A model generated the notes under the pieces. That model did not search any database and was not told the DNA's origin. It saw only the letters and a program-made list of their open reading frames with translations. Shown piece by piece: positions 3,175 through 59,166 of a DNA stretch of 64,000 nt. The stretch lies in the NCBI GenBank assembly GCA_963816145.1, contig CAWFJP010000014.1:352001-416000 (forward strand), in the 5' to 3' direction. Origin of the DNA: an uncultured delta proteobacterium (GTDB lineage Bacteria > Desulfobacterota > Binatia > UBA9968). The position numbers and the translations under genes were made by a program. The number at the start of each line of letters is the position of its first letter. Positions within the stretch are counted from its first letter, which is position 1.

Positions 3175-3203
3175 TTAGATGTTGCGGGGCGCGGGTTGGG
3201 TGC
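3175..3203 (-). promoter_or_regulatory. Putative ECF promoter GCACCC-N16-CATCTAA upstream of MOSC
   Basis: Matches recurrent motif; 10 nt before ATG; its TAA is the stop codon of the upstream remnant. Confidence 0.6.
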
Positions 3204-3498
3204 GCGCGACATTTTTCTCGGCAAGTACAATGCGATCGAGGCGCAGCAGTTCAGCGAGCGACCAAGCTTGAAACGAGCAGCCGCGCGGCGTACGCGGCGC
3301 ATCGGCGTCGGCGATCTCCATCGCGGCGTCAAAACCGTTGACCAAAATAGACCGTCCAGCCGGCGCTTTGGTCGCGCTGAGCAGTAGCGCCCGGTAGCGC
3401 CGCGTGCGGATGCCCGACACTGTGCCGGAAGCGAAGCCGCCAAGCCCTCGGTTTCCAGCCATTCGTCGCGCATCATGTGGGAAGAGGTCAAGCGTCAT
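3175..3498 (-). pseudogene. Internally deleted glycogen debranching enzyme (amylo-alpha-1,6-glucosidase) remnant
   Basis: N-terminal EWLET-GLGGFASGTVSGIRTRRY-ALLL (frameshifted) fused directly to C-terminal EIADADAP-TPRGC-FQAWSLAELLRL. Confidence 0.8.
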
Positions 3499-3655
3499 TG
3501 CCGGTGTCATCTAACGATTTTTTGAATAGCGCCAATGCCGATTTCTTACTCTCTCGCCCATTCCGATGGGAGAGAGCGGGGGTGAAGGCTATCTGCTTTC
3601 ACCAATCGCCCCCTCACACTTCCCGAAGGCGTGGCGGCGAGGAAACCAGATATGA

Positions 3656-4714
3656 TCACCGCTCGACTATCTGCAACCCGTGGCCGTCGGGGTCGCGTGC
3701 CAGAAAGCCCTTTGCGAAGCTGAGAGTATTCTCCGGCAAATTCGCCAGGCTCGGCGAAACTACTCGCCGCTTCGCTTGTCGCAGTTTTTGTGCGGCGTTT
3801 GCCGCGTTGTCAGTCGTCAGAGTCGTTTGCCAGTGCCACAAATCGTTTGCTCTGGTGTCGCTCGGCGCAGGCCGGCCGTCGCGCGGCGCCAGGTATTCCA
3901 ACAACTCGATGCCAGGCCCAGCGGCGGCCCTGAGGCCGCTGATATGCAAACGCGCGCCAGCGACATTGTTCAAATGCTCTTGTTCAGTGCCGTAGTTAAA
4001 GCTGTCGCCGGCGAGTTTCATACCAAGTAGGTCGCGATAATATTTCAAACTGCTCGGTGTGTTCGACACGACGATGGCGCTGTGGTCGATGCCGAGAAAG
4101 AGCTTGTCGTTATTCCTTTGCCAGCGCGGATCGCCCTTGCCTGGCGGAAAGTAGATGATCTCCAAATTGTGCCCGTCGGGATCTTTGAAATAAAAAGCTC
4201 GAATACCGGCGGCGGCCTTGTTGGTGACCGGAATCGTTTGCGGCGCGGTGGAGACGTGGCGCACTTTGTGGTTGCGCAGCTGCTGATAGGCCCGGTCCAT
4301 ATCGCTGACCACGATGGCGATATGCTGAAACCCATGATCGTGGCTGCGCCATTCCAGCGGGATCGGCCGGCCCTCCGGGGCGAGATACTGCGTCAGTTCG
4401 ATCATTTCTTCGCCAAGCTTAAGGCGCACCACGCGCATGCGCAGCCCGAACAATCCCTGCAATTTCTCATACTCGCTGCCGTGAACTTCAACGTCCGTGA
4501 TCTTTTCAAAGCGTAATACTTTCGAGAAATACTCAACCGATCGATCCACATCGGCGACGGTCATGCCGATCGTTTCTAGGGAGCGGATCAGCTGCGCGGA
4601 CCCCGCTGAAGTAACAAGTAAAAAGGAAAAAATGAAAATCGCCGTCGTCAACGCGATATGAATATTATAGCGAATCTGTTCCGACCTTTTCAATTTTCCA
4701 TTCTCCATTATCAA
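3656..4714 (-). CDS. VOC/glyoxalase family two-domain protein, probably exported
   Basis: FQHIAIVVSDMD, YFKDPDGHNLE, IDHSAIVVS, RDPDGHGLQ motifs; hydrophobic N-terminus. Confidence 0.85.
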   Translation of the reverse strand: MIMENGKLKRSEQIRYNIHIALTTAIFIFSFLLVTSAGSAQLIRSLETIGMTVADVDRSVEYFSKVLRFEKITDVEVHGSEYEKLQGLFGLRMRVVRLKLGEEMIELTQYLAPEGRPIPLEWRSHDHGFQHIAIVVSDMDRAYQQLRNHKVRHVSTAPQTIPVTNKAAAGIRAFYFKDPDGHNLEIIYFPPGKGDPRWQRNNDKLFLGIDHSAIVVSNTPSSLKYYRDLLGMKLAGDSFNYGTEQEHLNNVAGARLHISGLRAAAGPGIELLEYLAPRDGRPAPSDTRANDLWHWQTTLTTDNAANAAQKLRQAKRRVVSPSLANLPENTLSFAKGFLARDPDGHGLQIVER

Positions 4715-6282
4715 TTCATTCTTTGAATGAGGTGTTCGCCGACGCGTAGCGCGTTCGCCATGATCGTCAGCGCCGGATTGACCGCGCCGCTAGAGACGAA
4801 GAAGCTACCGTCTACGACATAAAGGTTGTCCAATTCATGGGCCTTGCAGTTGGCATCGAGCGCGCTGGTTTTAGGATCGTTGCCGAAACGCACGGTGCCG
4901 ACCTGGTGCGCCACGCCGGCGAGCGGAATGCGCTGGCCGACGAACAAGTTGCGCGAGAACAATCCTTCGTGGCAGTCGTGGCCATGTACGGCGCATTTAG
5001 TCTGCTGCTGCATCAGTTCTTTCAACTTGGCGATCAAACGTTTGTGTCCTTCCTCGTTGTTGGGCTTATAGCTCAGGACGATCTTGCCGTCGGCGTCGAC
5101 AGTGACTCGGTTGTTGGGATCGGGAAGATCTTCCGAGGTAAGCCAAAAGTCGAGAGAATGTTTGGCCATGAGATCCAAGGTCCAGCCCGGCGCGATCGCC
5201 GGCGCACCGCCCTTGAGTGTCTCGCCGTCGAGCTTGCCAACAAACGAGATGTGACCCATGGGAAAATTCCAACCCGGGGCGCCAAAGTAGAAGTCGTTTA
5301 TTGAAAGAGACTTTTGAAAGATCGTTGGGTTTGGGCATTTTGACAGCGCCATCAAGACAGAATTGACATGACCCATGTAGTGACGGCCGACGGTGTCCGA
5401 GCGGTTCGCCAGGCCTCGTGGGTGTTGGTCGTTTTTTGAGCGCAACAATAGCGCCGCGGAATTGATCGCGCCGCAGGCCGAGACAACGATATCGGCCGAC
5501 AGTTCTTCGCGGCTGCCGTTGTGACTTACGATGACTTTCGACACGCACCGGCCCGCGGCGTCGGTTGTCAGTTTTTCGACGTAGGCGTTGGTCATTAGGG
5601 AAACATTTTCATGTTGCAGTGCCGGATCGACGGCGCAGACTTGCGCGTCGGACTTGGCGTAGACCAAACAGGGAAAGCCGTCGCAGGTCTCGCAGCGGAT
5701 GCATTTGCTGGCGCGCGGGTTCATTTCATCCAACATCACCCCCAGCGGTGTGTGAAACGGATGCAGCCCGAGCCGGGCAAAGTCATCGGACAACTGCTGG
5801 ATGCGCGGCTCGTGGCTGACGGGCGGGTGGAGGTAGGGGCCGGATGCTTGTGGTTCCGTGGGGTCTTCGTTGCGTTGGCCATGGACGTGATAAAGCGCCT
5901 CGGCTTCACTGTAGTAAGGCTCCATGGCGTCGTAGGAGATCGGCCAAGCCGGCGAGATGCCGCCATGATGCTTAATCTCGCCGAAGTCTTCCTTGCGCAG
6001 GCGAAACAGCGCCGCGCCGAAGAACTTCGTGTTGCCGCCGACGAAGTAGTTCGTGTGCGGATGGAGATCTCGGCCGTCTTGGTCGCGCCACTTCTCTTTT
6101 GTCTGATATTTGCCGTCGAGATTGACCGCTTTCGGGCTCCAGTTGTCCTTTTCGCGCGGCACGTAATCGCCCCGTTCGAGGATCAAAATCTGTTTTCCCG
6201 TCGGCGCTAGTTTGTATGCCAGCGTCCCGCCGCCGGCGCCGCTGCCGATGATGATCACGTCATAATGGTTCTGTGTCGCCAT
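4711..6282 (-). CDS. GMC family FAD oxidoreductase
   Basis: IIIGSGAGGG FAD motif, CIRCETCDGFPC, AHQVGTVRFG, VNPALTIMANALRV. Confidence 0.92.
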   Translation of the reverse strand: MATQNHYDVIIIGSGAGGGTLAYKLAPTGKQILILERGDYVPREKDNWSPKAVNLDGKYQTKEKWRDQDGRDLHPHTNYFVGGNTKFFGAALFRLRKEDFGEIKHHGGISPAWPISYDAMEPYYSEAEALYHVHGQRNEDPTEPQASGPYLHPPVSHEPRIQQLSDDFARLGLHPFHTPLGVMLDEMNPRASKCIRCETCDGFPCLVYAKSDAQVCAVDPALQHENVSLMTNAYVEKLTTDAAGRCVSKVIVSHNGSREELSADIVVSACGAINSAALLLRSKNDQHPRGLANRSDTVGRHYMGHVNSVLMALSKCPNPTIFQKSLSINDFYFGAPGWNFPMGHISFVGKLDGETLKGGAPAIAPGWTLDLMAKHSLDFWLTSEDLPDPNNRVTVDADGKIVLSYKPNNEEGHKRLIAKLKELMQQQTKCAVHGHDCHEGLFSRNLFVGQRIPLAGVAHQVGTVRFGNDPKTSALDANCKAHELDNLYVVDGSFFVSSGAVNPALTIMANALRVGEHLIQRMN

Positions 6283-6337
6283 GGATCGCCCCGTTATTCG
6301 TCAGTGCCAGCGCTTAAGATCTTGTGCGTAATAGCCG

Positions 6338-6366
6338 TTAGATGCGCGAGAGCATCGATAGGATGC
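6338..6366 (-). promoter_or_regulatory. Putative ECF promoter GCATCC-N16-CATCTAA upstream of GMC oxidoreductase
   Basis: Intergenic, about 55 nt before ATG. Confidence 0.7.
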
Positions 6367-6443: not shown

Positions 6444-6920
6444 TCATGACAACCGCGCCGAGCCGAAATTGACGCTAAAGCGGGCGCACCAGATCGAGAC
6501 GTTCTTATACTTGGTTAGGTCCACGTCCGCCGGGATTACGTAGTTCTGGTCGCCTTTGTTGCCTTTCATCGAACCCAAGTCGACGAAGCCGGCGGCCATG
6601 ACGGCGTCGCTGCCCTTCTCCACTTCAGCTCCGGTTAGGTAGACATGCACGTCAGGGCCGTTGGAGGTCTCGAACTCGGTGAGTCGCAGCGTCTGCTTGC
6701 CATCGGCGAGTTTGTAGATCGTCGCTAAACCCTTGGTTTCATGGGCCAGGCTTTTGAAGTTACCTTGCACCAAACTCATCGGTCCGGCGGCAACCTGGGC
6801 GCCAACAGGAAACTGCTCGTTGACCTGTTTGTTGATGAACAGCAGCTCCGGGCGGAAGGCGTACCAAGCTATCGCCAATCCGACAATGCTAACTCCAACA
6901 AGGATTTGACGCTTATTCAT
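6444..6920 (-). CDS. DM13 domain protein, N-terminal membrane anchor
   Basis: LRLTEFETSNGPDVHVYL, DLGSMKGNKGDQNY, VSIWCARFSVNFG; GGAGG RBS before ATG 6920. Confidence 0.9.
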   Translation of the reverse strand: MNKRQILVGVSIVGLAIAWYAFRPELLFINKQVNEQFPVGAQVAAGPMSLVQGNFKSLAHETKGLATIYKLADGKQTLRLTEFETSNGPDVHVYLTGAEVEKGSDAVMAAGFVDLGSMKGNKGDQNYVIPADVDLTKYKNVSIWCARFSVNFGSARLS

Positions 6921-7001
6921 AATTATGATCCTCCGCAAACGATCTTGTTAATTTTCAACCTAGTGCATGACCTGATGCGCGGCCTCTTACGATCTGGTCT
7001 G

Positions 7002-7030
7002 TTAGATGCAAAATGGTGCGTGAAGGATGC
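7002..7030 (-). promoter_or_regulatory. Putative ECF promoter GCATCC-N16-CATCTAA upstream of DM13 gene
   Basis: Both boxes identical to the 6338 site with an unrelated spacer. Confidence 0.7.
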
Positions 7031-7748: not shown

Positions 7749-7928
7749 ATCTTGAGTCGACGTGTGTTTGGCGCTTGATTCTTACTCCGGATGTTTTCGC
7801 CGCGAACGGCGGTTTTTTGCTAAGCCGCGGAAATCAAGATAGAATTGATAATGATGGTGATTTTGGACGTAAGACGAATTGGTCAACAAACTGATGGATT
7901 CAGGACCAATGAAGGCAAGCTTCCTTAA

Positions 7929-8135
7929 ATGGGCAACTCAGCAGCTTTACTTTGGGCGACGGTTTTTGGTGTGATCGGTCTCGCCTATTTTGTCTACGGG
8001 AAGAATCAGAATTGTTTCGTTCCACTGTTCTGTGGAATGGGGCTTATGGCATTCCCCTATTTTATCTCGAATACGGTTCTCCTGGTCGTTGTCGGGCTTG
8101 GCCTTTCGGCGGTTCCCTACTTTTTCCGGGATTGA
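7929..8135 (+). CDS. Small membrane protein (68 aa)
   Basis: Hydrophobic; FGVIGLAYFVYGK...LMAFPYF pattern of a widespread small conserved family. Confidence 0.7.
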   Translation: MGNSAALLWATVFGVIGLAYFVYGKNQNCFVPLFCGMGLMAFPYFISNTVLLVVVGLGLSAVPYFFRD

Positions 8136-8215
8136 AGCTTATGAAGCAGAGCGTTGCGCTCGTCAATCGTTTAGCCTAAACCAATTTAGCGTCTTCCATA
8201 AGATATCAGAACACC

Positions 8216-8678
8216 ATGCTGAATAAGCAATTTCCAACTGTTTTCATGCTCGTGTACATAGTTTCCGCATCCGCCGGCGCTAGTTTTTCCGCGCCAGTAT
8301 TCGCGCAGCCGGGCGGAACGGCTACGGTGATCGTTAAAATTATTGGTCTTCTTTCCGAAAAGGGGCAGGTGAAAATCGCCATGTTCAATTCGGCTGGATC
8401 CTGGCTAGGCGATCATCCGAAATACAATACGACGATCGATGTGAATAGTCAGTCGGTTTCATGGGAACTGGGCGATGTTCCGTATGGGGATTATGGCATC
8501 ACGGTTTTTCATGATGAAAACAAAAACGGCAAGATGGATAAAAACTTCTTGGGAATACCGCAAGAGCCCTACGGATTTTCGAACAACATGAGGGTCGATG
8601 TTCAGACCGCCGTTATGGGACAAATCCAAGTTTGTCGTCACTGGCCCAACTACCGACGTTTCCATTGAAGTTAAATAG
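8216..8678 (+). CDS. DUF2141 family exported protein (frameshift near 8598)
   Basis: VFHDENKNGKMDKNFLGIPQEPYGFSNN, then FRPPLWDKSKF...IEVK* in another frame. Confidence 0.85.
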
Positions 8679-8758
8679 GGCGCCGGTCGGGGTGCGAATC
8701 TTGCGCTCCGATCACTAAATGCTGCTGTTCATAGGCATCGCAAAAGGAGCTTTCGGAT

Positions 8759-9151
8759 ATGCCAAGAAACATTATCATGGCGGCTTCACTGCCCGCGCCT
8801 CCCGATAAACTCTTCGACATGTATCTCGATGCGGCTCAACACGCGGCATTGACCGGTTTACCCGTGACATTGGAACCTCGTGCCGGCGGTGCGTTTCATG
8901 CCTTCGACGGCATGCTTTCCGGTATCATCCTGCATATTCAGCCGAAGTCGCTGATCGTGCAAACCTGGAGGTCGGTGAATTGGCCACTCACTGCGATGGA
9001 CTCGGTGCTGACGCTCTCGTTCTACCCGGCGGAAGACGGAGGCCGGATCGAGCTCGTCCATATCAACGTGGCGGATGAAGACTTCGCCGGTGTCAGCCAG
9101 GGTTGGGAAAAATATTACTGGACGCCGTGGCGAGCCTATCTGACTAAATAG
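8759..9151 (+). CDS. SRPBCC/AHSA1-like domain protein
   Basis: LIVQTWRS..W, GWEKYYWTPWRAYL; AGGAG RBS. Confidence 0.85.
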   Translation: MPRNIIMAASLPAPPDKLFDMYLDAAQHAALTGLPVTLEPRAGGAFHAFDGMLSGIILHIQPKSLIVQTWRSVNWPLTAMDSVLTLSFYPAEDGGRIELVHINVADEDFAGVSQGWEKYYWTPWRAYLTK

Positions 9152-9237
9152 AACGGTCGTTAAGATCTCGCCTAATTGATTGTTAACCTCGGCAAAAGCG
9201 GCGACACCGATCACGACTGTAACTTGGCGAGGTTTAT

Positions 9238-9688
9238 TTGAACAGCGTAGGTGAACTTTCGATCGCGGCCACGGGCCTGTCGTTTACAGGATTCTTCGTG
9301 TTTTGCTTGGTGTCCTTTCTCGGCAGTCATATCGCCGGTGCGCTAGCACTGGTTGGCGGCGTGTTGGTGTTGGCGACGATGGCGTCTTGGTGGGATCGTT
9401 GGTCGCGCCGGCCTGTCCGGAGCGCCATCAGTTCGTCAGCACGCACTCTGTCGTGATGACGATCCAGCATGGCCTTAAAATCATTGTCTTCGTGCTTTGG
9501 GCTTTGCCTTCGGTCCTTACATCGCGCTTTTGATTGGTCTGGTAACTTTCAGTTTTATCGGCAGCTACGCCGGCAAGCTCTTGCTCAATCGTCGGCCGAA
9601 ACGGATTTTTCGCATGGCGTTAAAGGCGACCCTAACCATGCTCGCGTTGCAGCTGTTCTATTCGGCCTTGCGCCCAATCCTCGGATAG
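9238..9688 (+). pseudogene. TauE/SafE (TSUP) sulfite exporter remnant, internally deleted and frameshifted
   Basis: N-terminal SFLGS-IAGAL-L-GGVLVLATMA and C-terminal STHSVVMTIQHGLKIIVF / GFAFGPYIALL in three frames; middle missing. Confidence 0.65.
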
Positions 9689-9737
9689 TCGCTAGCCAAT
9701 TTGAAATAGCCAGATCCCATGCGTTGCAAATGGTTTG

Positions 9738-10466
9738 TTAGCGCATGCCCGAGTAGCTGTTCACCGTCGCGTGCAGGTTGCGGGCGAAGTCGGTGGCAGC
9801 TTGGGTGCTGATGCTGAATGCCGTGCGGGCGTATTCTTTGACCGCAAGCACCGCGGCGAGCGGCATGGATTTGAAATGATCGACCAGGCGATTGACGCTC
9901 GCGGCCAACTCGTCGTGCGTGACAACGTCACTGACGAGCGCATAGGTGAGGGCTTTGTGGGCGTCGATTTCTTGCGCCGAATAGATCATGAAGGTGGCGG
10001 CTTTGCGCGGCATGCGGTCGACCAGGGCGGAGAAGGCGATGGTCGGCATGATTTTATGCGCGGTTTCGGGAAACGAAAAACGCGCCTTGTCGCCGGCGAT
10101 GGTGATATCGCAGAGCGCTGCGAGGGCGCAGCCGAGACCCACCGCGCGCCCCTGGACGACGCCGATGATCGGAACTTTGGCGTTGCGAAAGGCGCCGTAG
10201 AGATTGAAGATCGTCTCGCTGCGCTCGCGAACTGAATAAGCTTCCGGGCCGGGAGTCGGCGGCGCGACGCCCATGGAGTCGCGCCCCAAACAGAAATCGT
10301 CACCGGCGCCTTTGAAAATAATCAGGCGAGACGACTTGGCAGCGTCATCGAACATCTGCGTCACCTGCGCCCAGGTGGCATCGCTCTGGCGGTTGCCGAC
10401 TTCCGGCCGGTTCAACAAGATAGTCGTGATGTCGTTATCTTTGGTTACGAGTACGGGGTCCGCCAT
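9738..10466 (-). CDS. Enoyl-CoA hydratase/isomerase family protein
   Basis: ILLNRPEVGN, GAGDDFCLG, VQGRAVGLGCALAALCDI, FSFPE. Confidence 0.88.
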   Translation of the reverse strand: MADPVLVTKDNDITTILLNRPEVGNRQSDATWAQVTQMFDDAAKSSRLIIFKGAGDDFCLGRDSMGVAPPTPGPEAYSVRERSETIFNLYGAFRNAKVPIIGVVQGRAVGLGCALAALCDITIAGDKARFSFPETAHKIMPTIAFSALVDRMPRKAATFMIYSAQEIDAHKALTYALVSDVVTHDELAASVNRLVDHFKSMPLAAVLAVKEYARTAFSISTQAATDFARNLHATVNSYSGMR

Positions 10467-10686
10467 GGTCATGCCTCCAAGGTTTGGTCGGGCCACTTTA
10501 GGGAGGCGCAGCGCGGCTGTCAACGGCTTAAACGGCGCCGCGCGTTCCAGTCGTTCCATCGGTTCCAAACGTTCCAAGTGTTTTCGTCACTGATCAATTG
10601 CCAAAACGCAAGCCTCTCGTCTTGCGAAGAAGTTAGTTTCAAAATAGACTTCGGGCGTTTAAATTCGAAAGATTTAGGAGAGTGCT

Positions 10687-11091: not shown

Positions 11092-11109
11092 GTAGAGCTT
11101 TTCCGACCC

Positions 11110-11400: not shown

Positions 11401-11431
11401 GAGTTTAAATTGAGTCACTAAGGAGCAACTG

Positions 11432-39925: not shown

Positions 39926-39954
39926 TTAGATGCGCCGCCGGCGCTGAAAGGTGC
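39926..39954 (-). promoter_or_regulatory. Putative ECF promoter GCACCT-N16-CATCTAA upstream of spondin gene
   Basis: Recurrent motif, intergenic. Confidence 0.65.
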
Positions 39955-45203: not shown

Positions 45204-45232
45204 TTAGATGCGCGGTGTCGCCAAAGAGATGC
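45204..45232 (-). promoter_or_regulatory. Putative ECF promoter GCATCT-N16-CATCTAA upstream of GlcG operon
   Basis: 35 nt before ATG. Confidence 0.7.
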
Positions 45233-47284: not shown

Positions 47285-47313
47285 TTAGATGCCGCGGGCG
47301 GCGTGATCGGTGC
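47285..47313 (-). promoter_or_regulatory. Putative ECF promoter GCACCG-N16-CATCTAA upstream of nucleotidyltransferase
   Basis: Recurrent motif in intergenic gap. Confidence 0.65.
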
Positions 47314-50097: not shown

Positions 50098-50126
50098 TTA
50101 GATGAGGCTGGTCGGAGAATAGTTGC
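50098..50126 (-). promoter_or_regulatory. Putative ECF promoter GCAACT-N16-CATCTAA upstream of glucose dehydrogenase
   Basis: Recurrent motif, intergenic. Confidence 0.7.
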
Positions 50127-50773: not shown

Positions 50774-50802
50774 TTAGACGTGTGTTCTTGGAAATAGGTT
50801 TC
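50774..50802 (-). promoter_or_regulatory. Putative ECF promoter GAAACC-N16-CGTCTAA
   Basis: Classical ECF AAC/CGT arrangement. Confidence 0.72.
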
Positions 50803-51153: not shown

Positions 51154-51215
51154 AAAGAGAGTGTCGACTTCCAGTCGACGAATTCAGAACCCATTGGCTT
51201 GGAGCCGAGGGTGAT

Positions 51216-51389
51216 TCAGTTTCGGCTGGCGTTATCGGTCTGGGTTGGTTGACGCTTACGCAGATAATTCCGGCGCGCCTGCAACCAAGTGGCGCTTGGC
51301 CACTCCCAGCGCAGGTGCGGCAGTTCGTGCTCGTCGTAGTAGCCGTCATTGACCGGGCTTTGGCTGAAAATCGCTTCCCAGGAATTCAT
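51216..51389 (-). CDS. Hypothetical 57-aa Trp-rich protein
   Basis: MNSWEAIFSQ...; GAGGAG RBS; downstream of motif at 51460. Confidence 0.55.
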   Translation of the reverse strand: MNSWEAIFSQSPVNDGYYDEHELPHLRWEWPSATWLQARRNYLRKRQPTQTDNASRN

Positions 51390-51459: not shown

Positions 51460-51488
51460 TTAGACGCTAGTGGAGCTGTTTTCGGTGC
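51460..51488 (-). promoter_or_regulatory. Putative ECF promoter GCACCG-N16-CGTCTAA
   Basis: Recurrent motif, intergenic. Confidence 0.62.
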
Positions 51489-51587: not shown

Positions 51588-51908
51588 TTACGCCGCCAGC
51601 TGGCAAATCTGGGTAATCAGGTATAAAACGATGGCGCTGATACGGCGGAGTTTTTTGCGCAGGAAGCCGAGAACGTTGTCGCGCACTTTGGGCGGAATCT
51701 CTTCCGTATGCAAAGTCGCCGTGCTTTGCACGGTCTTTTTGTAAGTATTCACAAAACTGACGCAGTCGGGACAGATGCTCAGGTGCCTGGCAAATTCCTG
51801 CTTAACGGTTGGGCTGAGTTTGTCGGTCAGGTAGTCCAACATCAGATCCGCGATCTGTTTGCAGGTTTTTGCGGACAATGGGCGGCGTGTGGTTTTTACT
51901 TGGGGCAT
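51588..51908 (-). CDS. zf-HC2 (ZAS) anti-sigma factor 1
   Basis: TCKQIADLMLDYL...FARHLSICPDC...YKKT; directly after the ECF sigma gene. Confidence 0.88.
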   Translation of the reverse strand: MPQVKTTRRPLSAKTCKQIADLMLDYLTDKLSPTVKQEFARHLSICPDCVSFVNTYKKTVQSTATLHTEEIPPKVRDNVLGFLRKKLRRISAIVLYLITQICQLAA

Positions 51909-51922
51909 CGGTGACTCTTTCT

Positions 51923-52633
51923 TTACGCTGCGGAGTAGCCGAGTTGGACGGCCAGTTTGCCGCGCAGGAACAGGCGCGCGCGATGCAGCCGGGTCTTGAC
52001 TGCCGAGACGGTCAAGCCGGTGGCAGCGGCGATTTCCTTGTCGGACAAGCCTTCGAGATCGCTCAAGACGATGACGGTTTTGTCTACCGGCTTCAATTGA
52101 TCGAGGGCTCTGGCGATCAGACCCTGGGTTTCGCTCTTGGCGTAGTGTTCGTCGAGGGTATCCGACCAGTCGACCACCGGCCGCATTCGGTGGTGGCCGT
52201 CGTCTTGAAACTTGGGCAAAAATTCATCGTAGGCCACTTCCTTGGATTTCTTGCTGCGGCGAATCCGACCCAAAGCTGCGTTGACGGTGAGCCGATAGAG
52301 CCAGGTGGAGAATTGCGAATGGCCCTGGAACAAATGGGCTTTGCGGAACGCGGTATGAAAAACGTCCTGGATCACTTCTTCGGCATCCGGAGCATCGCCG
52401 CCGAGTATGCGCAAGGCGAGGTTGTAAAGTTTGCCCGAGTAGAGATGGAAAATATTCTCCAGCGCGTCGTGATCGCCGGCCTTGAGGCGCTCGATCAAGC
52501 CGGTATCGGCTTCGGCGCCTTTGGCGCGACGTGTCGGTGCGCTCGAGCGAACCACACCGCGCTGTGGCAATGGCCGAGCCATCCGTGTCTCGGTGAGCTT
52601 GGGAGTGATGGCGAAGTTGGTTTCGCGGGACAT
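51923..52633 (-). CDS. ECF RNA polymerase sigma-70 factor
   Basis: DAEEVIQDVF, FSTWLYRLTVN, EGLSDKEIA, VKTRLHRARLFLR; GAGGAG RBS. Confidence 0.93.
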   Translation of the reverse strand: MSRETNFAITPKLTETRMARPLPQRGVVRSSAPTRRAKGAEADTGLIERLKAGDHDALENIFHLYSGKLYNLALRILGGDAPDAEEVIQDVFHTAFRKAHLFQGHSQFSTWLYRLTVNAALGRIRRSKKSKEVAYDEFLPKFQDDGHHRMRPVVDWSDTLDEHYAKSETQGLIARALDQLKPVDKTVIVLSDLEGLSDKEIAAATGLTVSAVKTRLHRARLFLRGKLAVQLGYSAA

Positions 52634-52680
52634 AAGAATCTCCTCGTTTGCTGTAATCGACTCGGCAAAACTTCTTTGAA

Positions 52681-52965
52681 TCATTCCGCTAACTCCCCTT
52701 TGGCAATTGTCTCTAAGAGCGTAGCGATGAACGGCGAGCAGTTGATGATCCGCAGTTTTTCATTGCTCATATCGATCAAACCGCGCGCCGCTTGATCGTT
52801 CATGAACTCGACTCCCGCCATGTCCAAGATGACGGTGCATTCGACGCCGTCGCGATGCGCCGTACAGGCATCGGTCAAGTCGCTAAAGGCCTCATTCGAT
52901 AGGGTACCGTCGAGACGCAGGCGAACGGTGTTGCCAGTTTCAAAGCTTTCGGTGATTTTGAGCAT
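52681..52965 (-). CDS. STAS domain protein
   Basis: LRLDGTL, ILDMAGVEFM, NCSPFI. Confidence 0.82.
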   Translation of the reverse strand: MLKITESFETGNTVRLRLDGTLSNEAFSDLTDACTAHRDGVECTVILDMAGVEFMNDQAARGLIDMSNEKLRIINCSPFIATLLETIAKGELAE

Positions 52966-53000: not shown

Positions 53001-53016
53001 AGCAGGGCTCGTGCCA
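53001..53016 (-). promoter_or_regulatory. Sigma54 -24/-12 promoter TGGCACGAGCCCTGCT
   Basis: GG-N10-GC, one mismatch to TGGCACG-N4-TTGCW; divergent from an enhancer-binding protein gene. Confidence 0.8.
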
Positions 53017-53081: not shown

Positions 53082-53118
53082 GTCGCGATATTTCGCAACG
53101 GTTGTGAAATATCACAAT
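53082..53118. promoter_or_regulatory. Putative upstream activator sequence (double palindrome)
   Basis: GTCGCGATATTTCGCAAC-G-GTTGTGAAATATCACAAT, 66-102 bp upstream of the -24 box. Confidence 0.6.
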
Positions 53119-53169: not shown

Positions 53170-56100
53170 ATGGCGGGAGAAAAACTGGCGGATGTGGACT
53201 TGGGAGGCACCCAGAGCGGCTGGCCCGAATCGGCGCATGTCGCGTACTTTTGGAACACCGCAGAAGAATTCTCTGACGGCGTCACGTTTCTTGAAGTCGG
53301 CCTGCGTGGCGCAGATCACGGCGTAATCTTCGGCCACGACGATGCTAACCGTGAGGTTTGCCGGATCCTCGAAAGTCGCGGTTTGGATCTCACCCAGCTC
53401 GCTGCCGATGGTCGGCTAACGATTTTGCGCGGCCACCCCGATGTCGACCAGATGCTCGATGAGATCGGTCAAGCCTTCGAGCGCGCACTTGCGGGCGGTG
53501 CCAGCCTGGTTCGGCTGTTGGGCAATATCGGCTGGAGCCACGCTGATTGGCCCGATGAACAGGCTTTGCTCAGGTTCGAAGCACGAGTCACCGACGCAGC
53601 GAAACAGTTTCCCTGCGTGGTGGTCTGCATGTATGACGTCGCGGGTCTGCCGGGGACCATCGTCCATCATGGCGGGCTCGGCACCCATCCGCATGTACTT
53701 CGTAACGGTCATCCGCAGAACAACCCGCAATATCTTCCGCTGGATATTTTCTTGCGCCGAATTGAAACTCTGGCTGGCGCCATCGGCGAGCGCCGGCGCC
53801 ACGACGAGACGCTGCACCATATTACCGAAGGCACGGTGCAGTTCATCGGCGACGAATTTTTTCGCCAGTTGGCGCGCCATTTGGCTGACGCACTGCATGT
53901 CCGTTATTGTTTCGTCGCCGAATGCACCGACGACTCGCAAACGCGGCTGCGCGCGCTGGCGTTCTGGGACGGTCAAGGGTTCGCGCAAAACGTCGAGTAT
54001 CCGATACGCGGCACTCCCTGCGAAAAAGTCATCGAGGGCAACATCTGTTCCTATCCGGATCGGATTCAACAACTCTTTCCGGAGGACCAAGATCTGGTCA
54101 CCCTCGGCGCCGAAAGCTACGCCGGCGTGCCGTTGCCGAACTCACAGGGAAAGGTGCTTGGCCACTTGGTGGTGATGGACAACCGGCCGCGCCACTTCGA
54201 CGAAAATGAGCTGCGCGTATTGCGTATCTTCGCCAACCGCGCCGGCATCGAACTCGAAAGGTTGCGCGCCGATCGCAAGGTCAGCCAGCTCAATGGCGAA
54301 CTGACCGCGCTGCTCGAAATCAACCGCGCCATCGGCCGCCAACTGGAGCGCGAGCATTTATTTGGCGCGCTGTCCGATTGCTTGAAAAGCGTCGTGCCGA
54401 CCGAACGATTCGGCATCGAAATTCCGCTCGACGGTAACCGCCTCGAAGGGCATATTCTTTCCAATGGCGCGTCGATCGGCGCGCCCACCGAGCCGACGAT
54501 TTTGCCGGCTGCCGGAACCGCGTGTGATTGGGTGCTGCAAACGCATCAATGGTTTATCGCCGGCAGTCGCGACGAGTTTCGCGACCGCTTTCCGGTCACC
54601 TACAGGGTCATGAGCGAGCAAGGCATGGAATCGCTGTGCGCCGTCGCCTTGGTCAGCGGCGGGCGCAACCGTGGCGCGCTGTTTTTCATGGCGTCTGTCA
54701 AGGATGCCTATCGCGATTTGCGCCGTAACTTCATCGAACAGGTCGCCAATCAAATCGCCCTCGCCATCGAAAACGTCAACTCCTACGAAGAAATCGCGGC
54801 ACTCAATCAAAAGATCGCGGCGACCGCAGCGCGCCGGCAAACTCTGCTCGAAGTCAACAATGCGATTGTCACCAAGCTGACCAGGGAGGAGCTTTTGGCG
54901 GTGGCCTGCGACGCTCTTAGCAAGGTGATCTGGTTCGACCGGCTGGCGCTTTCCCTCTACGATCCCGCCATCGAATCTCTGCGGATTGTCGCTTGCGCCG
55001 GTCCTTATCAGCGGCAGGACTATTCGCCGATCGGACGTCAGCTGAAGCTTGACGATAGTCCGGCGGGGCAAGCGTTTCAGAGCCAGCGGCCGATACTGTG
55101 CGGCGATCTTGAAACCGAGCGCCGGACCGCCTCCGAGGAGCGCGCTTACGGCCACGGCTTCCGCTCCATCTGTGTCCTGCCCTTGGTTGTTCATGGCAGA
55201 TCTCTCGGGGCGATCACCGTCGGCAGCCTGACCCGTTGCCAATATTCCGCAGCCGACGCCGAGTTTCTCATGGAGGTGGCTAATCAGATCGCCATCGCGG
55301 TTGAGAATATGCAGCTGCACGAAGAGACCGCCGCTTTGAAAGCACGCTTCGAAGCCGAGACGGTTTACTTGCAGGAAGAGATCAAGACCGAACACAATTT
55401 CGAAGAGATCATCGGCCAGAGCGAAAAGGTGCGCGAGCTGCTGCGCAAGGTCGAACAGGTCGCGCCCACCGACGCTTCGGTTTTGATCTGCGGCGAGACC
55501 GGCACCGGCAAGGAGTTGTTGGCGCGCGCGGTGCACGATCGCAGCAAGCGCAAAGATCGCGCCTTGGTGAAGGTGAACTGCGGCTCGATTCCGTCCGGCT
55601 TGGTCGAAAGCGAGCTGTTCGGCCACGAAAAGGGCGCCTTTACCGGTGCCATGCAGCAACGCATCGGCCGCTTCGAGCTCGCCCACGGCGGCACGATCTT
55701 TCTCGACGAAGTCACCGAGCTGCCGCTCGATACTCAAGTGAAACTCTTGAGAGTGTTGCAAGAAGGGGAGTTCGAGCGGGTCGGCAGCAGCAAGACGATG
55801 AAAGTCGACGTGCGCGTGATCGCCGCGACGAACCGCGATCTGAACCAGGTAGTCAGCAAGGGCAGTTTCCGCGCCGACTTGTATTATCGTCTTAATGTTT
55901 TTCCGCTCGAATCGCCGGCGCTGCGCGATCGCAAGGACGACCTTCCCTTGTTGGTGAGTTTTTTCTTGAGCCGTTTCGGCAAGAAACTCGGCAAAGAGGT
56001 GCGCGGCGTGGCGCAAAAATCGATGGAGAGTCTAGTTCGCTACAACTGGCCAGGCAACATTCGCGAACTGCAAAACGTCGTCGAACGCGCGGTGGTGCTG

Positions 56101-56337
56101 GCCCGCGGCCCGGTGGTGCAAGTGGACGAATCGATGCTGCGCAGCGACTCGGCCGCGGCGGCGGAAGTTTCGGCCATCGATACGTTGGAAAATAACGAGC
56201 GCAATCATATCCTGCACGCTCTGGCTGAAACTAATTGGGTGATCCATGGCAAAAAAGGCGCGGCAGAGCTGCTTGGCATCAATCCCAGCACGTTGCGCTC
56301 GCGCATGGATAAACTTGGCATCAAGCGGCAGGCGTGA
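53170..56337 (+). CDS. Sigma54-dependent activator (FhlA-like): MEDS + 3 GAF + AAA+ + Fis HTH
   Basis: N-terminal HVAYFW...CMYDV...THP (MEDS-like); GETGTGKE, GAFTGA, RADLYYRL, WPGNIRELQN, GAAELLGINPSTL. Confidence 0.92.
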   Translation: MAGEKLADVDLGGTQSGWPESAHVAYFWNTAEEFSDGVTFLEVGLRGADHGVIFGHDDANREVCRILESRGLDLTQLAADGRLTILRGHPDVDQMLDEIGQAFERALAGGASLVRLLGNIGWSHADWPDEQALLRFEARVTDAAKQFPCVVVCMYDVAGLPGTIVHHGGLGTHPHVLRNGHPQNNPQYLPLDIFLRRIETLAGAIGERRRHDETLHHITEGTVQFIGDEFFRQLARHLADALHVRYCFVAECTDDSQTRLRALAFWDGQGFAQNVEYPIRGTPCEKVIEGNICSYPDRIQQLFPEDQDLVTLGAESYAGVPLPNSQGKVLGHLVVMDNRPRHFDENELRVLRIFANRAGIELERLRADRKVSQLNGELTALLEINRAIGRQLEREHLFGALSDCLKSVVPTERFGIEIPLDGNRLEGHILSNGASIGAPTEPTILPAAGTACDWVLQTHQWFIAGSRDEFRDRFPVTYRVMSEQGMESLCAVALVSGGRNRGALFFMASVKDAYRDLRRNFIEQVANQIALAIENVNSYEEIAALNQKIAATAARRQTLLEVNNAIVTKLTREELLAVACDALSKVIWFDRLALSLYDPAIESLRIVACAGPYQRQDYSPIGRQLKLDDSPAGQAFQSQRPILCGDLETERRTASEERAYGHGFRSICVLPLVVHGRSLGAITVGSLTRCQYSAADAEFLMEVANQIAIAVENMQLHEETAALKARFEAETVYLQEEIKTEHNFEEIIGQSEKVRELLRKVEQVAPTDASVLICGETGTGKELLARAVHDRSKRKDRALVKVNCGSIPSGLVESELFGHEKGAFTGAMQQRIGRFELAHGGTIFLDEVTELPLDTQVKLLRVLQEGEFERVGSSKTMKVDVRVIAATNRDLNQVVSKGSFRADLYYRLNVFPLESPALRDRKDDLPLLVSFFLSRFGKKLGKEVRGVAQKSMESLVRYNWPGNIRELQNVVERAVVLARGPVVQVDESMLRSDSAAAAEVSAIDTLENNERNHILHALAETNWVIHGKKGAAELLGINPSTLRSRMDKLGIKRQA

Positions 56338-56367: not shown

Positions 56368-57042
56368 TCAAGTTCCAACGCTTCGGATCCTGGCACTTCG
56401 TGCCAACTCGTCTATGGAACGTTTTGAACGACTGGAACGATTGGAAGCTTTGGAACTTCCTAACGATAGTGATGCCCAGCTTGGCGACCAGACCGATAGC
56501 CCAACAGAAGCAGCCAGCACCGCGCCGTACTGAACCGGGCGGCGGATATCGGCTTTGACCAACCAATAGAAGTGCACCACGCCTAACATTGCGATCCCAT
56601 AGACGAGATAGTGGAGTTGTTGCCAGCGTTTGCCGAGGCGCCGGATCATCGCCGCGTTCGAAGTCAGCGCCAGCGGGATCATCAACACCAGCGCGCTGAA
56701 GCCGACCGTGATATAGGGCCGCTTCAAGATATCTTTGCCGATGGCGGAGAAATCGAAAAACAGATCGAGCACCATGTAGGTGGCGAAGTGGAGGGCGGCA
56801 TAGAAAAAAGCGAACAAGCCGAGCATGCGGCGTAATTTTATCAGCTCGTTCCAGCCAGTGAGCTTCCGTAGCGGCGTGACCGCCAAGCTTGAGAGTAAAA
56901 TTAGCAATGCATAGGAGCCGGTGAAGCGGGTGATGTACTCGATCGGGTTGGCGGTCAGATTGTCGCTGTAATAATTAAAGACAAGCTGGCCTAATGGAAT
57001 AAGACAGATCAGAAAGGCGGCGGATTTGACCAGGCGAAACAT
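56368..57042 (-). CDS. msrQ: Methionine sulfoxide reductase heme subunit MsrQ (3' frameshift, end uncertain)
   Basis: LAVTPLR, RRMLGLFAFFY..LHF, KRPYITVG, WQQLHYLVY. Confidence 0.9.
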   Translation of the reverse strand: MFRLVKSAAFLICLIPLGQLVFNYYSDNLTANPIEYITRFTGSYALLILLSSLAVTPLRKLTGWNELIKLRRMLGLFAFFYAALHFATYMVLDLFFDFSAIGKDILKRPYITVGFSALVLMIPLALTSNAAMIRRLGKRWQQLHYLVYGIAMLGVVHFYWLVKADIRRPVQYGAVLAASVGLSVWSPSWASLSLGSSKASNRSSRSKRSIDELARSARIRSVGT

Positions 57043-57161: not shown

Positions 57162-58124
57162 TCAGTAATATTTTTTCAGGTCCATGCCGCTGTACAAGCT
57201 TGCGACTTGGTCGCCATAGCCGTTGAACATCAGGGTTTTGCGCCGGCGGAATTCGCCGATGCGCCGTTCAGTGGCCTGGGTCCAGCGCGGGTGATCGACT
57301 TCGGGATTGACATTGGAGTAGAAGCCGTACTCTTGCGGCTGCATCATGTTCCACGACGCGGCTGGCTGCTTTTCGACGAAGCGGACTTTGACGATCGACT
57401 TGATGCTCTTGAAGCCATATTTCCAGGGTACGACGATGCGGATCGGCGCGCCGTTCTGGGCCGGCAGGACCTCACCGTAAAGACCGACCGAGAGAATCGT
57501 CAGAGGATGCATCGCCTCGTCCATGCGCAATCCTTCGACATAGGGCCATTCCAAGGTCGCAAGTTTTTGACCAGGCAGCCGTTTGGGATCGTTGAGGGTG
57601 ACGAACTGGATGAACTTGGCGTTGCCGGTGGGCTCGGCCTGCTTGATCAGCGAACTGAGCGGAAAGCCTATCCACGGAATCACCATCGACCAGGCTTCGA
57701 CGCAACGCAGGCGGTAGATTCGTTCTTCCAGCGGCGCTAATTTAGTCAGTTCTTCGATGTCATAGGTTTTGACTTTCTTGACTTCGCCCTCGACTGCGAC
57801 TGTCCATGGACGAGTGGTGAGATACTTGGCGTTGGCTGCCGGATCTTCTTTGTCCGGGCCAAGTTCATAGAAATTATTGTAGTTGGTGATTTCTTTCAGC
57901 GTGTTCAGTTTTTCGTTGGTGCTGAACGAACTCTTCTTGACGTTGGCAAGTTTCTCGGCGCCGTACGCCGAGGCGAAATCCTTGCCGGGCTCGATGCCGC
58001 TGAGAATCGCGCCAGCGCCTAGCGCCATGGCGGACGCCGAAAGCATGAACTGCCGGCGGTTCAGGTAGTGCTCTTTGGGGGTGATCTCCGCCGACTTGAT
58101 GTCGGCAGGCTTTTTAATAAGCAT
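57162..58124 (-). CDS. msrP: Methionine sulfoxide reductase molybdo-subunit MsrP
   Basis: Tat [42 protein letters not shown]. Confidence 0.96.
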
Positions 58125-58155: not shown

Positions 58156-58677
58156 CTATTCAGCGATCAGTTGTTTGATCGTCGCTTCGGTTACGCTGTA
58201 GGCGCCTTCGCCAATATGGCTGTAACGAATTACGCCCTTTTTGTCGACCAGCACGATGGTTGGCCAAGCCCAGACGCCGTAGCGGTGCCAAATGTCAAAG
58301 TTGTTGTCTTGCACCACTGGGAACTTGATACCGAGACGCGCGGTCGCTTCCTTCACTTTGGCCAAGGGTTTTTCCCAGGGAAATTCCGGCGAATGGACGC
58401 CGACGATGGTCAACCCGGCTTGTTCAAACTTATCATGCCAACCCCGCAACTGCGAGATGATGTTTCTACAGTTGATTCAGCCATAGGTCCAAAACTCGAC
58501 CAAAATCACCCGGCCTTTGAGGCCTGTGATGTTGAGAGGTTTGCTGTTGATCCAGTTTTCGCCGGCGAGCTCGGGCGCAGGTGTACCGTTGGTGAGCGCC
58601 GTGCCGGCGCGCGGCCAAGCCGCCCAAAGCGCCAAGGCGAGAACGAGAGCCGTTGAAAAAGCTGCCAGACGTACCAT
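58156..58677 (-). CDS. Exported thioredoxin-like redoxin (DipZ/TlpA type) with UxxC, probable selenoprotein
   Basis: WINSKPL...[11 protein letters not shown](58477-58479)-INCRN...GVHSPEF...AWPT...HIGEGAY in one frame. Confidence 0.85.
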
Positions 58678-58743
58678 GATTTTGCCAGTTCTCTTTGCCC
58701 CGCCTGGCCGGATGAATCGCCGTGCCAAGCTATCGTTGTACGA

Positions 58744-58772
58744 TTAGATGACACCCAGCCAGTCCGGGTTGC
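58744..58772 (-). promoter_or_regulatory. Putative ECF promoter GCAACC-N16-CATCTAA upstream of trx-msrPQ
   Basis: Recurrent motif, 66 nt before ATG. Confidence 0.72.
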
Positions 58773-58894
58773 AAGATTTTCTTGATTGCTTTTAGAACGT
58801 TAACTTACCTGGCAAAGTTCCCCGGCGGCGGAATCGCAGTGGTCTAAAATGCGCGGCCGGAGCCCCTGTGGGCCCCGGCGCGCTTGGCGGGCGG

Positions 58895-59107
58895 TTAGTG
58901 GATGAGTTGCGAGGGGGACGAGAGATTTTCTAATTCTTCAGTTAAGTCGGTCGGATGGGCGCTCTTCTTGATCATTTCCATTAGCGCCAACTGCGCCAGT
59001 TTGTAGGCATCCTTGTCGTTGTCGGTACATGCGAACGCAACTTCGCTGGCGGCGGCGATCAAATCTCCCAGGGTGGTGTCGATTCTTCGGCTGTTGGATT
59101 TTTCCAT
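58895..59107 (-). CDS. Hypothetical small protein (70 aa, IDTTLGDLIAA motif)
   Basis: ATG at 59107 with AAGGA RBS; preceded by motif. Confidence 0.7.
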   Translation of the reverse strand: MEKSNSRRIDTTLGDLIAAASEVAFACTDNDKDAYKLAQLALMEMIKKSAHPTDLTEELENLSSPSQLIH

Positions 59108-59138
59108 ATTCTCGCGGGTCCTTTCTTCCCTTGCTTGT

Positions 59139-59166
59139 TTAGACGATGGCGGGGAAAAAAGGATGT
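59139..59166 (-). promoter_or_regulatory. Putative ECF promoter ACATCC-N15-CGTCTAA (spacer contains homopolymer runs)
   Basis: Weaker match; the 1-nt shorter spacer may be a homopolymer error. Confidence 0.45.

Follow-up and report, generated by a model that had tools for sequence, protein, structure and literature searches.

Several sigma factors of the extracytoplasmic function (ECF) type are known whose synthesis or activity is tied to a further regulator, and we compare them here on the basis of the available parts of the cited papers. In the HrpR/HrpS-sigma-54-HrpL system of Pseudomonas syringae and Erwinia, the ECF gene lies behind a sigma-54 promoter that needs an enhancer-binding protein (PMC5263251). 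Oxidative-stress ECF sigma factors controlled by a zinc-finger anti-sigma (ZAS) protein include SigR-RsrA of Streptomyces, SigE-MseR of Neisseria and RpoE2-HrsE of Haemophilus, the last belonging to ECF group 13 (PMC7907618). ECF16 sigma factors (SigF-NrsF, BcrS-AbcS and EcfF-OsrA of Caulobacter, Azospira, Brucella and Bradyrhizobium) are encoded beside msrPQ-type genes, which they induce under oxidant or hypochlorite stress; their anti-sigma factor is a DUF1109 membrane protein with six helices, and their promoter is (T/C)GTAAC-N17-CGAA (PMC8315932). Here we analyze a 64-kb stretch (the window, G000:C14:352001-416000) of the genome of an uncultured deltaproteobacterium (G000; 7.82 Mb in 31 contigs), in which a bipartite motif, GCAHC-N17-CRTCTAA, recurs upstream of genes. 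An earlier reading of these letters by a model (the sequence-only reading) had proposed that the motif marks the promoters of an ECF sigma factor encoded nearby. Our conclusion, to which we assign a probability of about 0.72, is that an ECF (group 4) sigma factor uses the motif as its promoter, that a conserved 61-kb island holds a local regulon of 14 or more transcription units marked by it, and that the sigma factor encoded within that island is its most likely reader.

Results

A bipartite motif is concentrated in a 61-kb island

ECF-type promoters have a -35 box with AAC and a -10 box of the CGT/TCTAA type, separated by a spacer of 16-17 nt, with transcription starting some 6-8 nt downstream. 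In the window we found 9 exact matches to GCAHC-N17-CRTCTAA where 0.07 were expected; all 9 are on the minus strand, and none of 100 shuffled sequences reached that number. The 11 sites that the sequence-only reading had listed, which include two relaxed ones (GAAACC with N16 at 50774 and ACATCC with N15 at 59139), were all present on the minus strand at the positions given for them (Table 1), and a scan with a position weight matrix (PWM) added a variant site, GCACCG-N16-CATCCAA, at 48774. By itself CRTCTAA was barely enriched in the window (13 seen versus 8.06 expected), and the signal therefore resides in the combination of both boxes. The spacer, which had been proposed to be a constant 16 nt, is indeed sharply fixed: genome-wide counts for spacers of 12 to 21 nt were 2, 0, 2, 0, 13, 3, 0, 0, 1 and 1, respectively. 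Because the spacers and flanks of the sites are mutually unrelated, the motif is not a repeat element, as had also been claimed.

Across the 7.8-Mb genome there were 13 exact matches; reversing the genome left 3, and four third-order Markov genomes had 4, 1, 7 and 2. Eleven of the 13 fall on one strand (minus) of a 61-kb stretch, G000:C14:350063-410772, two of these just to the left of the window (window -317 and -1937); the remaining two are found inside a uvrA-like frame (C4:130435) and before a rhodanese gene (C5), the latter site recurring in a relative, G007. PWM hits of at least 22 bits numbered 10 in the real genome and 0-1 in the null genomes. Outside the island the hits of at least 17 bits (about 15) equaled the null level of 12-17, and the enrichment is thus real and essentially local to the island. 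The regulon, foreseen as a large one, is essentially confined to the island. Since the PWM was trained on the island sites themselves, its scores for those sites are circular; the independent test is provided by the relatives.

The motif is kept upstream of orthologous genes in related genomes

The genus set comprises 31 genomes including G000; the relatives are metagenome-assembled genomes (MAGs) labeled Binatia, Syntrophobacter-like or Deltaproteobacteria, three additional loci being named MAG contigs (L024, L025 and L026), and the stretch was found in wetland, soil and sediment metagenomes. One genome, G005, is unpublished; it adds one to the exact-pattern, sigma-locus, sigma-54-promoter, sigma-orthologue and DM13 counts below, and no claim depends on it alone. 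Applied to the relatives, the G000-trained PWM detected sites upstream of orthologues (41-89% amino acid identity) of 13 island genes, namely those for the DM13, GMC, MOSC, GH63, spondin-domain, GlcG, nucleotidyltransferase, MIP and glucose dehydrogenase-like proteins, the 74-aa and 57-aa open reading frames (ORFs), the thioredoxin-like protein and the cytochrome b, in G004, G008, G014, G019, G043, L024, L025 and L026. Conservation of this kind in related MAGs had been named as a check of the motif.

The DM13 gene provides the deepest comparison. Among the 22 genomes with an orthologue, 20 carry the motif at 20.7 bits or more, 74-125 nt upstream; the exceptions are G017 (10.8 bits) and G045 (17.2 bits, with stops in the gene), both of which are without the sigma factor. 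When 19 of these upstream regions (G005 left out) are aligned with the motif as anchor, the information per column is 1.78 bits in one box and 1.82 in the other, compared with 0.15 in the 5' flank, 0.29 in the spacer and 0.38 in the 3' flank. The weaker type of site found at 59139 is likewise kept, as ACATCS-N15-CGTCTAA (13.8-15.2 bits), before 3 of 4 orthologues of the 68-aa ORF.

A sigma factor encoded in the island is the likely reader

The island encodes a sigma factor of 253 aa, counted from the first ATG, whose gene the sequence-only reading had placed at 51923..52633 and which we now delimit as in Table 1. It has regions 2 and 4 only (Pfam Sigma70_r2, 48 bits; r4_2, 58.7 bits; no hit to region 3) and scores 84.9 against a cut-off of 42.9 for TIGR02937, features that place it by sequence in the ECF group (group 4) of the sigma-70 family. 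Scores for all equivalog models (NCBIfam) are far below cut-off. The nearest solved structures are SigW, AlgU and RpoE, and in an alignment to RpoE the positions named by Todor et al. read G for N84, K for R171 and T for S172.

Of the other 30 genomes in the genus set, 16 contain an orthologue of the sigma factor (60-77% identity), and none was detected in the 16 genomes searched from other families of the order. The gene order MutY-PBP-ORF68-Trx-MsrP-MsrQ-enhancer-binding protein-STAS-sigma-ZAS1-sORF57-ORF74-ZAS2-GlcDH-MIP is kept in 10 loci. Co-oriented hits of at least 16 bits accompany 13 of 14 genus loci with 60-80% orthologues, the single miss being the end of a 2-kb contig, and 7 of 7 named loci; around sigma paralogues of 35-40% identity there were none in one set of loci (0 of 5) and only marginal ones in another (2 of 8, at 16.5-16.9 bits; with a threshold of 17 bits, 0 of 8). 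Since all usable orthologue loci have flanking sites and the paralogue loci do not, and since synteny is conserved, the in-island sigma factor is probably the owner of the motif, provided that the motif is a promoter. The distribution of DM13, in which kin are not independent and most genomes are MAGs, is as follows: 16 of the 17 genus genomes with a sigma orthologue have DM13 with the motif, and the 14 without one comprise 4 that have DM13 with the motif, 2 with a degraded site and 8 without DM13. The claim that this sigma factor drives the regulon thus stands as the best reading, as something that we infer from where its orthologues and paralogues lie. We also observed that in G019 (L085, G019:C46, 10216-10913) the sigma orthologue is broken across frames with stops and its target sites are intact, which may reflect either an assembly error in a long-read MAG or recent loss.

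Several observations weigh against the conclusion that the island sigma factor reads ECF promoters at these sites. The canonical AAC is missing from the -35 box in most G000 sites, which have GCATC or GCACC; it is present in 4 of 13 (GCAAC twice, GAAAC, plus variants) and is common in relatives (GCAACC, GTAACC, GAAACT). RNA contigs, all from one metatranscriptome, reach the sigma, glucose dehydrogenase, nucleotidyltransferase and msrP genes only as pieces of 177-363 nt, and DNA carry-over is possible. No motif precedes the sigma operon itself: upstream of the STAS gene with which the operon begins, the best PWM score is -1.5 in G000 and at most 10.5 bits in 9 of 9 loci. The autoregulation typical of ECF sigma factors is therefore not seen here, which removes the usual argument for ownership. 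Four genomes (G018, G023, G020 and G015) keep a strong DM13 site and have no detected sigma orthologue; one of them, G018 (92% complete, 30 contigs), has strong sites before both DM13 and MOSC. No orthologue was found in G007 (98% complete) either, where sites precede cytochrome b, rhodanese and VTT-disulfide reductase genes; since its contig ends 770 nt past the cytochrome b site and G007 is a MAG, the island may be unassembled, and this absence is weak evidence. Exact-pattern counts across the 31 genomes were not clearly lower in those without a sigma orthologue. Finally, the -10 box alone is not specific, for a similar one precedes another ECF gene of G000, at C13:221163.

Two of these lines of evidence had been considered as support and were set aside. 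The RNA contigs were not counted as evidence of transcription: they cover 0.06 of sampled words and are short, and no starts, strand or induction can be read from them. Co-occurrence of the exact pattern across the 31 genomes gave no separation, some hits being conserved coding sequence (the uvrA-internal match at C4:130435 and its homologues). At G000:C13:221163-221696 (+), GTTAACC-N15-GCGTCTAA stands before the start of the ECF gene; it may be a self-promoter, in which the -10 box is the same and the -35 box and spacing differ. In G007, two motif-like sites occur in L089 (G007:C168:62001-82000) at 7831-13557, in a cluster of methyltransferase, radical-SAM/DUF3641, PHO4 transporter, VTT-disulfide reductase and DUF547 genes; homologues of these sites are also found in G003, G009 and G022.

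The lack of a self-promoter, together with the persistence of sites before DM13, MOSC, cytochrome b and rhodanese genes in G018, G023, G020, G015 and G007, would fit the idea that the motif is a genuine ECF promoter read by an ECF sigma factor encoded elsewhere, or by both, with the in-island protein having another or an overlapping specificity. Candidates exist, for G000 has 14 Sigma70_r2 matches, 12 of them in small frames, which leaves 11 other small sigma-70-family genes, one of which has the CGTCTAA box before its own gene. Yet in the 700 nt upstream of these 11 genes, as of the in-island one, the PWM scores no higher than 10.4 bits; no sigma-70-family gene of G000 other than the in-island one has a site nearby, and the loci of the closest paralogues are without sites. 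A site lies within 130 nt downstream of the in-island sigma gene in G000, and 26 to about 900 nt downstream in relatives. Most of the genomes that lack an orthologue are fragmented or incomplete MAGs, and the two sigma-less genomes G017 and G045 have a degraded DM13 site, in one case with a broken gene. We therefore regard a reader encoded elsewhere as unlikely, although it is the alternative to be taken most seriously.

The geometry of the sites is promoter-like

All 14 sites are co-oriented with, and upstream of, an open frame that starts 6-115 nt downstream, as the sequence-only reading had claimed for those it listed. At position +7 after TCTAA there is an A in 11 of 13 G000 sites, and among 36 sites of at least 19 bits in relatives a purine occupies +7 in 27 and +8 in 28, T being found in 3. 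The aquaporin ATG stands 6 nt past the motif in G000 and 5-6 nt past it in five relatives' loci, and the ATG is equally close to the motif in MOSC and spondin orthologues, in single genomes each. Such spacing points to a start on the A of the ATG and to a leaderless mRNA, and is hard to explain except by a promoter. With its two conserved blocks and fixed spacing the motif behaves as an ECF-type promoter: the spacing and the -10 box agree with the type, and the purines at +7 and +8 and the leaderless spacing suggest where transcription would start.

In principle, the two conserved boxes could be contacted by some other kind of protein, and the motif could then be an operator, made up of two half-sites, for a DNA-binding regulator such as a repressor or activator. 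Against this, the boxes are asymmetric, forming neither a palindrome nor a direct repeat, and are strictly gene-oriented at the 16-nt spacing typical of ECF promoters; purines follow at +7 and +8; and the boxes can stand 5-6 nt from a start codon, where only the promoter of a leaderless mRNA makes sense. In addition, the DM13 upstream alignment shows no other conserved promoter-like blocks. An operator is thus a very improbable explanation. That the recurrence is due to chance or is the relic of duplicated or mobile sequence, an idea to which the presence of a REP-like repeat family close to two sites (51060-51190 and 59265-59330) lends some color, is already refuted by the 9 matches against 0.07 expected, by the 1-7 matches in entire null genomes, by the unrelated spacers and flanks, by the fact that the repeat overlaps no site, and by the retention of the boxes across species at orthologous positions.

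Table 1. Motif sites, genes behind them, and features of the sigma operon. Positions are those of the window unless otherwise given; operon extents, including that of the run behind the 45204 site, were assigned from co-orientation alone.
Feature	Position	Strand	Genes downstream, or description	Orthologues with a site
ECF-type site, exact	3175..3203	-	MOSC/YiiM-like 2505-3164; GH63/MGH1-like hydrolase (runs off the left end)	G014, G018, G004
ECF-type site, exact	6338..6366	-	GMC oxidoreductase 4711-6282; VOC/glyoxalase 3656-4714	G008, G014, G043
ECF-type site, exact	7002..7030	-	DM13 protein 6444-6938	20 of 22 orthologues
ECF-type site, exact	39926..39954	-	Spondin-domain protein 38998-39852	G004
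ECF-type site, exact	45204..45232	-	Co-oriented run from 45168 down to 40138: GlcG/HbpS-like, GlcG2-cupin, 341-aa unknown, SGL lactonase, 162-aa unknown, SGL lactonase	G004, L024
ECF-type site, exact	47285..47313	-	Sugar-1-phosphate nucleotidyltransferase 46240-47241	G004, G008
Variant site, CATCCAA	48774..48802	-	6 nt before the ATG of MIP aquaporin 47978-48767; TPR protein 47319-47936	
ECF-type site, exact	50098..50126	-	Glucose dehydrogenase-like 48869-49982; a 1-nt indel (assembly or strain) at 49237 breaks the frame	
ECF-type site, GAAACC variant	50774..50802	-	74-aa ORF 50515-50739; ZAS2 50158-50418	Before the orthologous ORF in 7 loci
ECF-type site, exact	51460..51488	-	Conserved 57-aa ORF 51216-51389	L024, L025, G019
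ECF-type site, exact	58744..58772	-	Thioredoxin/TlpA-like with in-frame TGA 58156-58677; MsrP 57162-58124; MsrQ 56368-57042	G008, G014, G019, L025
Weaker variant site, ACATCC-N15-CGTCTAA	59139..59166	-	68-aa ORF 58895-59101	
Site left of the window	window -1937	-	Cytochrome b561 and 261-aa molybdopterin oxidoreductase, L096 16332-18009 = G000:C14:348332-350009	
ZAS1	51588..51908	-	Zinc-finger anti-sigma, 106 aa; zf-HC2; C16 and H42-x3-C46-x2-C49 invariant	
ECF sigma factor	51923..52684	-	253 aa, counted from the first ATG; has only regions 2 and 4	
STAS-domain protein	52681..52965	-	94 aa; first gene of the sigma operon	
Sigma-54-type promoter, TGGCAC-N5-CTGCT	53001..53016	-	35 nt before the STAS ATG	
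Two 14-nt palindromes, YGCGAWATWTCGCR	53084..53116	-	19 nt apart; candidate activator-binding sites	
Sigma-54 enhancer-binding protein	53170..56337	+	MEDS, three GAF, AAA+ sigma-54 interaction domain, HTH_8; divergent from the sigma operon	

A sigma-54-type promoter precedes the sigma operon

The sequence-only reading had not seen sigma-54 control, and this tier is new relative to it. Sigma-54-dependent promoters have GG at -24 and GC at -12 at an exact spacing and work with upstream activator sites and an activator that has an AAA+ sigma-54 interaction domain. Upstream of the STAS-sigma-ZAS1 operon lies a sigma-54-type promoter; nothing else in the window matches TGGCAY-N6-TGCT. In 17 of 20 loci, among which three pairs probably represent the same genomes, the strict pattern recurs at 330-540 nt before the sigma match, with near-matches in two of the misses. 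Some 95-115 nt further upstream are two palindromes, found at a conserved distance in 11 of 11 loci, that occur nowhere else in the window, nor elsewhere in most loci. The divergent gene next to them encodes an enhancer-binding protein (Sigma54_activat, 249 bits, plus HTH_8 in Pfam, and also in NCBIfam), an orthologue of which adjoins the STAS gene in all 10 of the relatives' loci that extend to that side, and the genome contains rpoN (Sigma54_DBD at C11:303484). Given the conserved promoter, palindromes and activator and the presence of rpoN, the operon is predicted by its sequence to depend on sigma-54 and the activator. Weak sigma-54-like strings downstream of the 51460 and 58744 sites were dropped, as they have no -12 GC.

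The sigma gene is accompanied by a STAS protein and two putative anti-sigma factors

The STAS protein, conserved in 9 loci, passes the Pfam STAS cut-off narrowly (24.3 versus 22.6). No RsbW-type kinase or PP2C phosphatase domain was found by Pfam among the 44 frames scanned; of the parts of an RsbV/RsbW-type partner-switching module, these frames include the STAS protein only. ZAS1 and the 86-aa ZAS2 score 32.0 and 33.6 bits for zf-HC2 against a cut-off of 22.2. The residues C16, H42, C46 and C49 of ZAS1 are invariant in 10 of 10 sequences, and the same motif is found in ZAS2, again in 10 of 10. Both thus carry the H-x3-C-x2-C motif with an upstream Cys of class I ZAS anti-sigma factors, with putative zinc binding and redox switching; the RsrA equivalog model TIGR03988, whose cut-off is 62.5 bits, gave 22.1. 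Both small ORFs (57 and 74 aa) are conserved, and neither matches a family. In most relatives, ZAS2 and the small ORFs sit behind ECF sites directly downstream of the sigma operon, an arrangement that suggests feedback. L025 differs in that no ZAS1 is present between the sigma gene and the 57-aa ORF, ZAS2 alone remaining; its strongest site (10612-10640, 24.6 bits) lies 26 nt after the sigma stop.

The genes behind the sites share a redox-repair and solute theme

The gene content named by the sequence-only reading agrees with Pfam and NCBIfam. MsrP (484.1 bits versus 207) and MsrQ (195.3 versus 130) exceed the cut-offs of their equivalog models and are encoded by adjacent genes, as expected of MsrPQ. 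As a whole, the set is concerned with redox repair of thiols, methionine and the envelope and with the handling of sugars and solutes, and it may be linked to oxygen exposure or drying. In addition to MsrPQ, a second YedYZ-like pair is represented by the cytochrome b561 and molybdopterin oxidoreductase to the left of the window. Outside the island, the highest-scoring hits precede rhodanese, AhpC-like and pyridine-nucleotide disulfide reductase genes; at their scores they are indistinguishable from chance, except that the rhodanese site is seen again in G007.

In the thioredoxin/TlpA-like gene (frame 58156-58728, minus strand), an in-frame TGA (58477-58479) replaces the first Cys of CxxC (WTYG-TGA-INC). 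The TGA occupies the same codon, with conserved protein sequence downstream, in 4 of 4 species (G000, G014, G008 and G019), and a selenocysteine tRNA (tRNA-SeC) gene is located on C30 of G000. The product is thus likely a periplasmic UxxC selenoprotein, and we rejected the idea that the apparent break marks a pseudogene. Elsewhere in the genome (G000:C29:361619-362131, minus strand), an AhpC/TSA-like frame with an in-frame TGA (GIW-TGA-PYC) is preceded by a motif of 20.1 bits, and may encode a second selenoprotein linked to the regulon.

Apparent frameshifts affect the genes for the glucose dehydrogenase (49237), the aquaporin (about 48420-48445), one lactonase (about 42240, in an A-run) and GlcG2-cupin (about 44250). 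Three independent DNA runs are without one base at 49237, exactly where the glucose dehydrogenase frame shifts, and contigs across the MIP shift are also gapped; at least the former shift is therefore an assembly or strain indel rather than the mark of a pseudogene. Decay of the regulon was considered, and we read the split genes as indels of this kind. Similar gene fragmentation was seen in the G018 and G019 loci.

A block of miscellaneous genes splits the island

Between 7.1 and 39 kb the window contains no site, as had been noted, the only CRTCTAA there (23161) being without a -35 box. The description of this block as housekeeping did not hold up: its content is miscellaneous (major facilitator superfamily transporters, DAHP synthase, solute-binding proteins, a DEAD helicase, a cyclase and others) and lies on both strands. 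G004 has a compact island of about 20 kb in which the spondin gene lies next to the DM13 gene; in G000 and G014 the island is therefore split by the block. Within the block, a frame at 29625-30644 (+) encodes the catalytic domain of a Tle1-like phospholipase of type VI secretion systems (268 bits), with no type VI secretion genes seen nearby. The dispersed repeat at 51060-51190 and 59265-59330, which resembles REP (repetitive extragenic palindromic) or MITE (miniature inverted-repeat transposable element) sequences, has the inverted-repeat core GTCATTCCGGCGCAGGCCGGAATCCAGG; the core is present in about 120 copies on 20 contigs and has very high depth in metagenome contigs. No Rfam match at the gathering threshold was found in the window.

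Discussion

Taken together, our results suggest a circuit of the following kind. The MEDS/GAF-sensing enhancer-binding protein would bind the two palindromes and activate the sigma-54 promoter, giving rise to a STAS-sigma-ZAS1 transcript. ZAS1, through its C...HxxxCxxC motif, would hold the sigma factor until a thiol-oxidizing or related signal frees it, a mode of redox release that we propose by analogy with described ZAS proteins. Free sigma factor would then direct RNA polymerase to GCAHC-N17-CRTCTAA, with transcription starting about 7 nt downstream and some of the mRNAs being leaderless. By also inducing the second ZAS and the two small conserved proteins, the sigma factor could provide feedback; these roles, like that of the STAS protein, are suggested by the positions of the genes. 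The output would comprise the thioredoxin-like protein, a putative selenoprotein, and MsrPQ, the cytochrome b/molybdenum-enzyme pair, MOSC, GMC, DM13 and GlcG proteins, glucose dehydrogenase, lactonases, the nucleotidyltransferase, the GH63 hydrolase and the aquaporin.

A more speculative possibility, of which we are doubtful, is that the arrangement acts as a two-key switch in which the sigma factor is never self-amplifying: the enhancer-binding protein and sigma-54 would set its synthesis, and the thiol-sensitive ZAS, the STAS protein and the ECF-induced second anti-sigma factor would set its activity. If so, two-key logic of a sort not described for ECF sigma factors outside Hrp systems would allow soil and wetland bacteria that are strictly or mostly anaerobic to arm a selenoprotein-containing envelope-repair and solute program only when two conditions coincide, such as a drop of the water table plus an oxidant, and the coupling of a STAS protein to a ZAS anti-sigma factor would be a new mode of ECF control.

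For an uncultured lineage, a complete candidate regulatory circuit is readable from the DNA, from the sensor and activator through the sigma-54 promoter and the ECF/anti-sigma pair to at least 14 candidate promoters and their redox-repair genes. Through co-regulation with MsrPQ, the DM13, spondin-domain and GlcG/HbpS-like proteins, the 57-aa and 74-aa ORFs, and the 341-aa and 444-aa unknowns would probably have a part in oxidant defense. The sigma factor, its promoter and its anti-sigma factor are also a potential orthogonal set. According to the part of the paper available, the promoter discovery of Todor et al. (2020; PMC7776599) is built on ECF autoregulation; lacking a self-promoter, the in-island sigma factor would be missed by it. 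The main text of the ECF reclassification paper (PMC7826278), in its available part, makes no mention of STAS, sigma54 or enhancer, and in the literature covered, outside which lie supplements and most subscription journals, we found neither this system nor any STAS-ECF-ZAS operon with a sigma-54 promoter described.

Comparison with known systems

Among the closest solved relatives of the sigma factor, E. coli RpoE, P. aeruginosa AlgU and B. subtilis SigW, the last has a recognition helix with which K-T-R of the in-island protein aligns, and the TCTAA -10 box resembles the RpoE type. The type of anti-sigma factor, the regulation and the regulon differ from those of all three, as do the equivalog scores, which are far below cut-off. 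With RsbV/SpoIIAA and with BtrV-BtrS of Bordetella the locus shares a single-domain STAS protein encoded with a sigma/anti-sigma pair; unlike those modules, it has no RsbW-type kinase or PP2C phosphatase in the 44 frames.

As in the ECF16 systems, so far as the available part of their description extends, msrPQ would be driven by a neighboring ECF sigma factor; unlike them, the locus has zf-HC2 anti-sigma factors and a CRTCTAA -10 box, and no DUF1109 protein was found among the 44 frames scanned. With SigR-RsrA, SigE-MseR and RpoE2-HrsE it shares a short cytoplasmic anti-sigma factor with the zinc/thiol motif, and thioredoxin-like and methionine sulfoxide reductase genes in the regulon (PMC7907618). 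Those sigma factors are described in the available part of the same paper as members of their own regulons, in contrast to the sigma factor here, for which no self-promoter was found. The reductase here is the periplasmic MsrPQ rather than MsrAB, and a second ZAS, a STAS protein and sigma-54 control are added.

In its top tier the system resembles, as far as the available account goes, HrpRS/HrpL (ECF32), in which a sigma-54 promoter and an adjacent enhancer-binding protein likewise lead to an ECF sigma factor and, through one box, to clustered operons. HrpL controls type III secretion and has no cognate anti-sigma factor in its operon; the sigma factor here is encoded with a STAS and a ZAS protein, its predicted activator is of the MEDS/GAF kind, and its output is redox repair and sugar handling. 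The hrp-box of HrpL reportedly also differs from the box described here. Falling outside the ECF16 and RsrA definitions, the system is a combination of known kinds, an ECF regulon and an HrpL-like cascade from sigma-54 to an ECF sigma factor.

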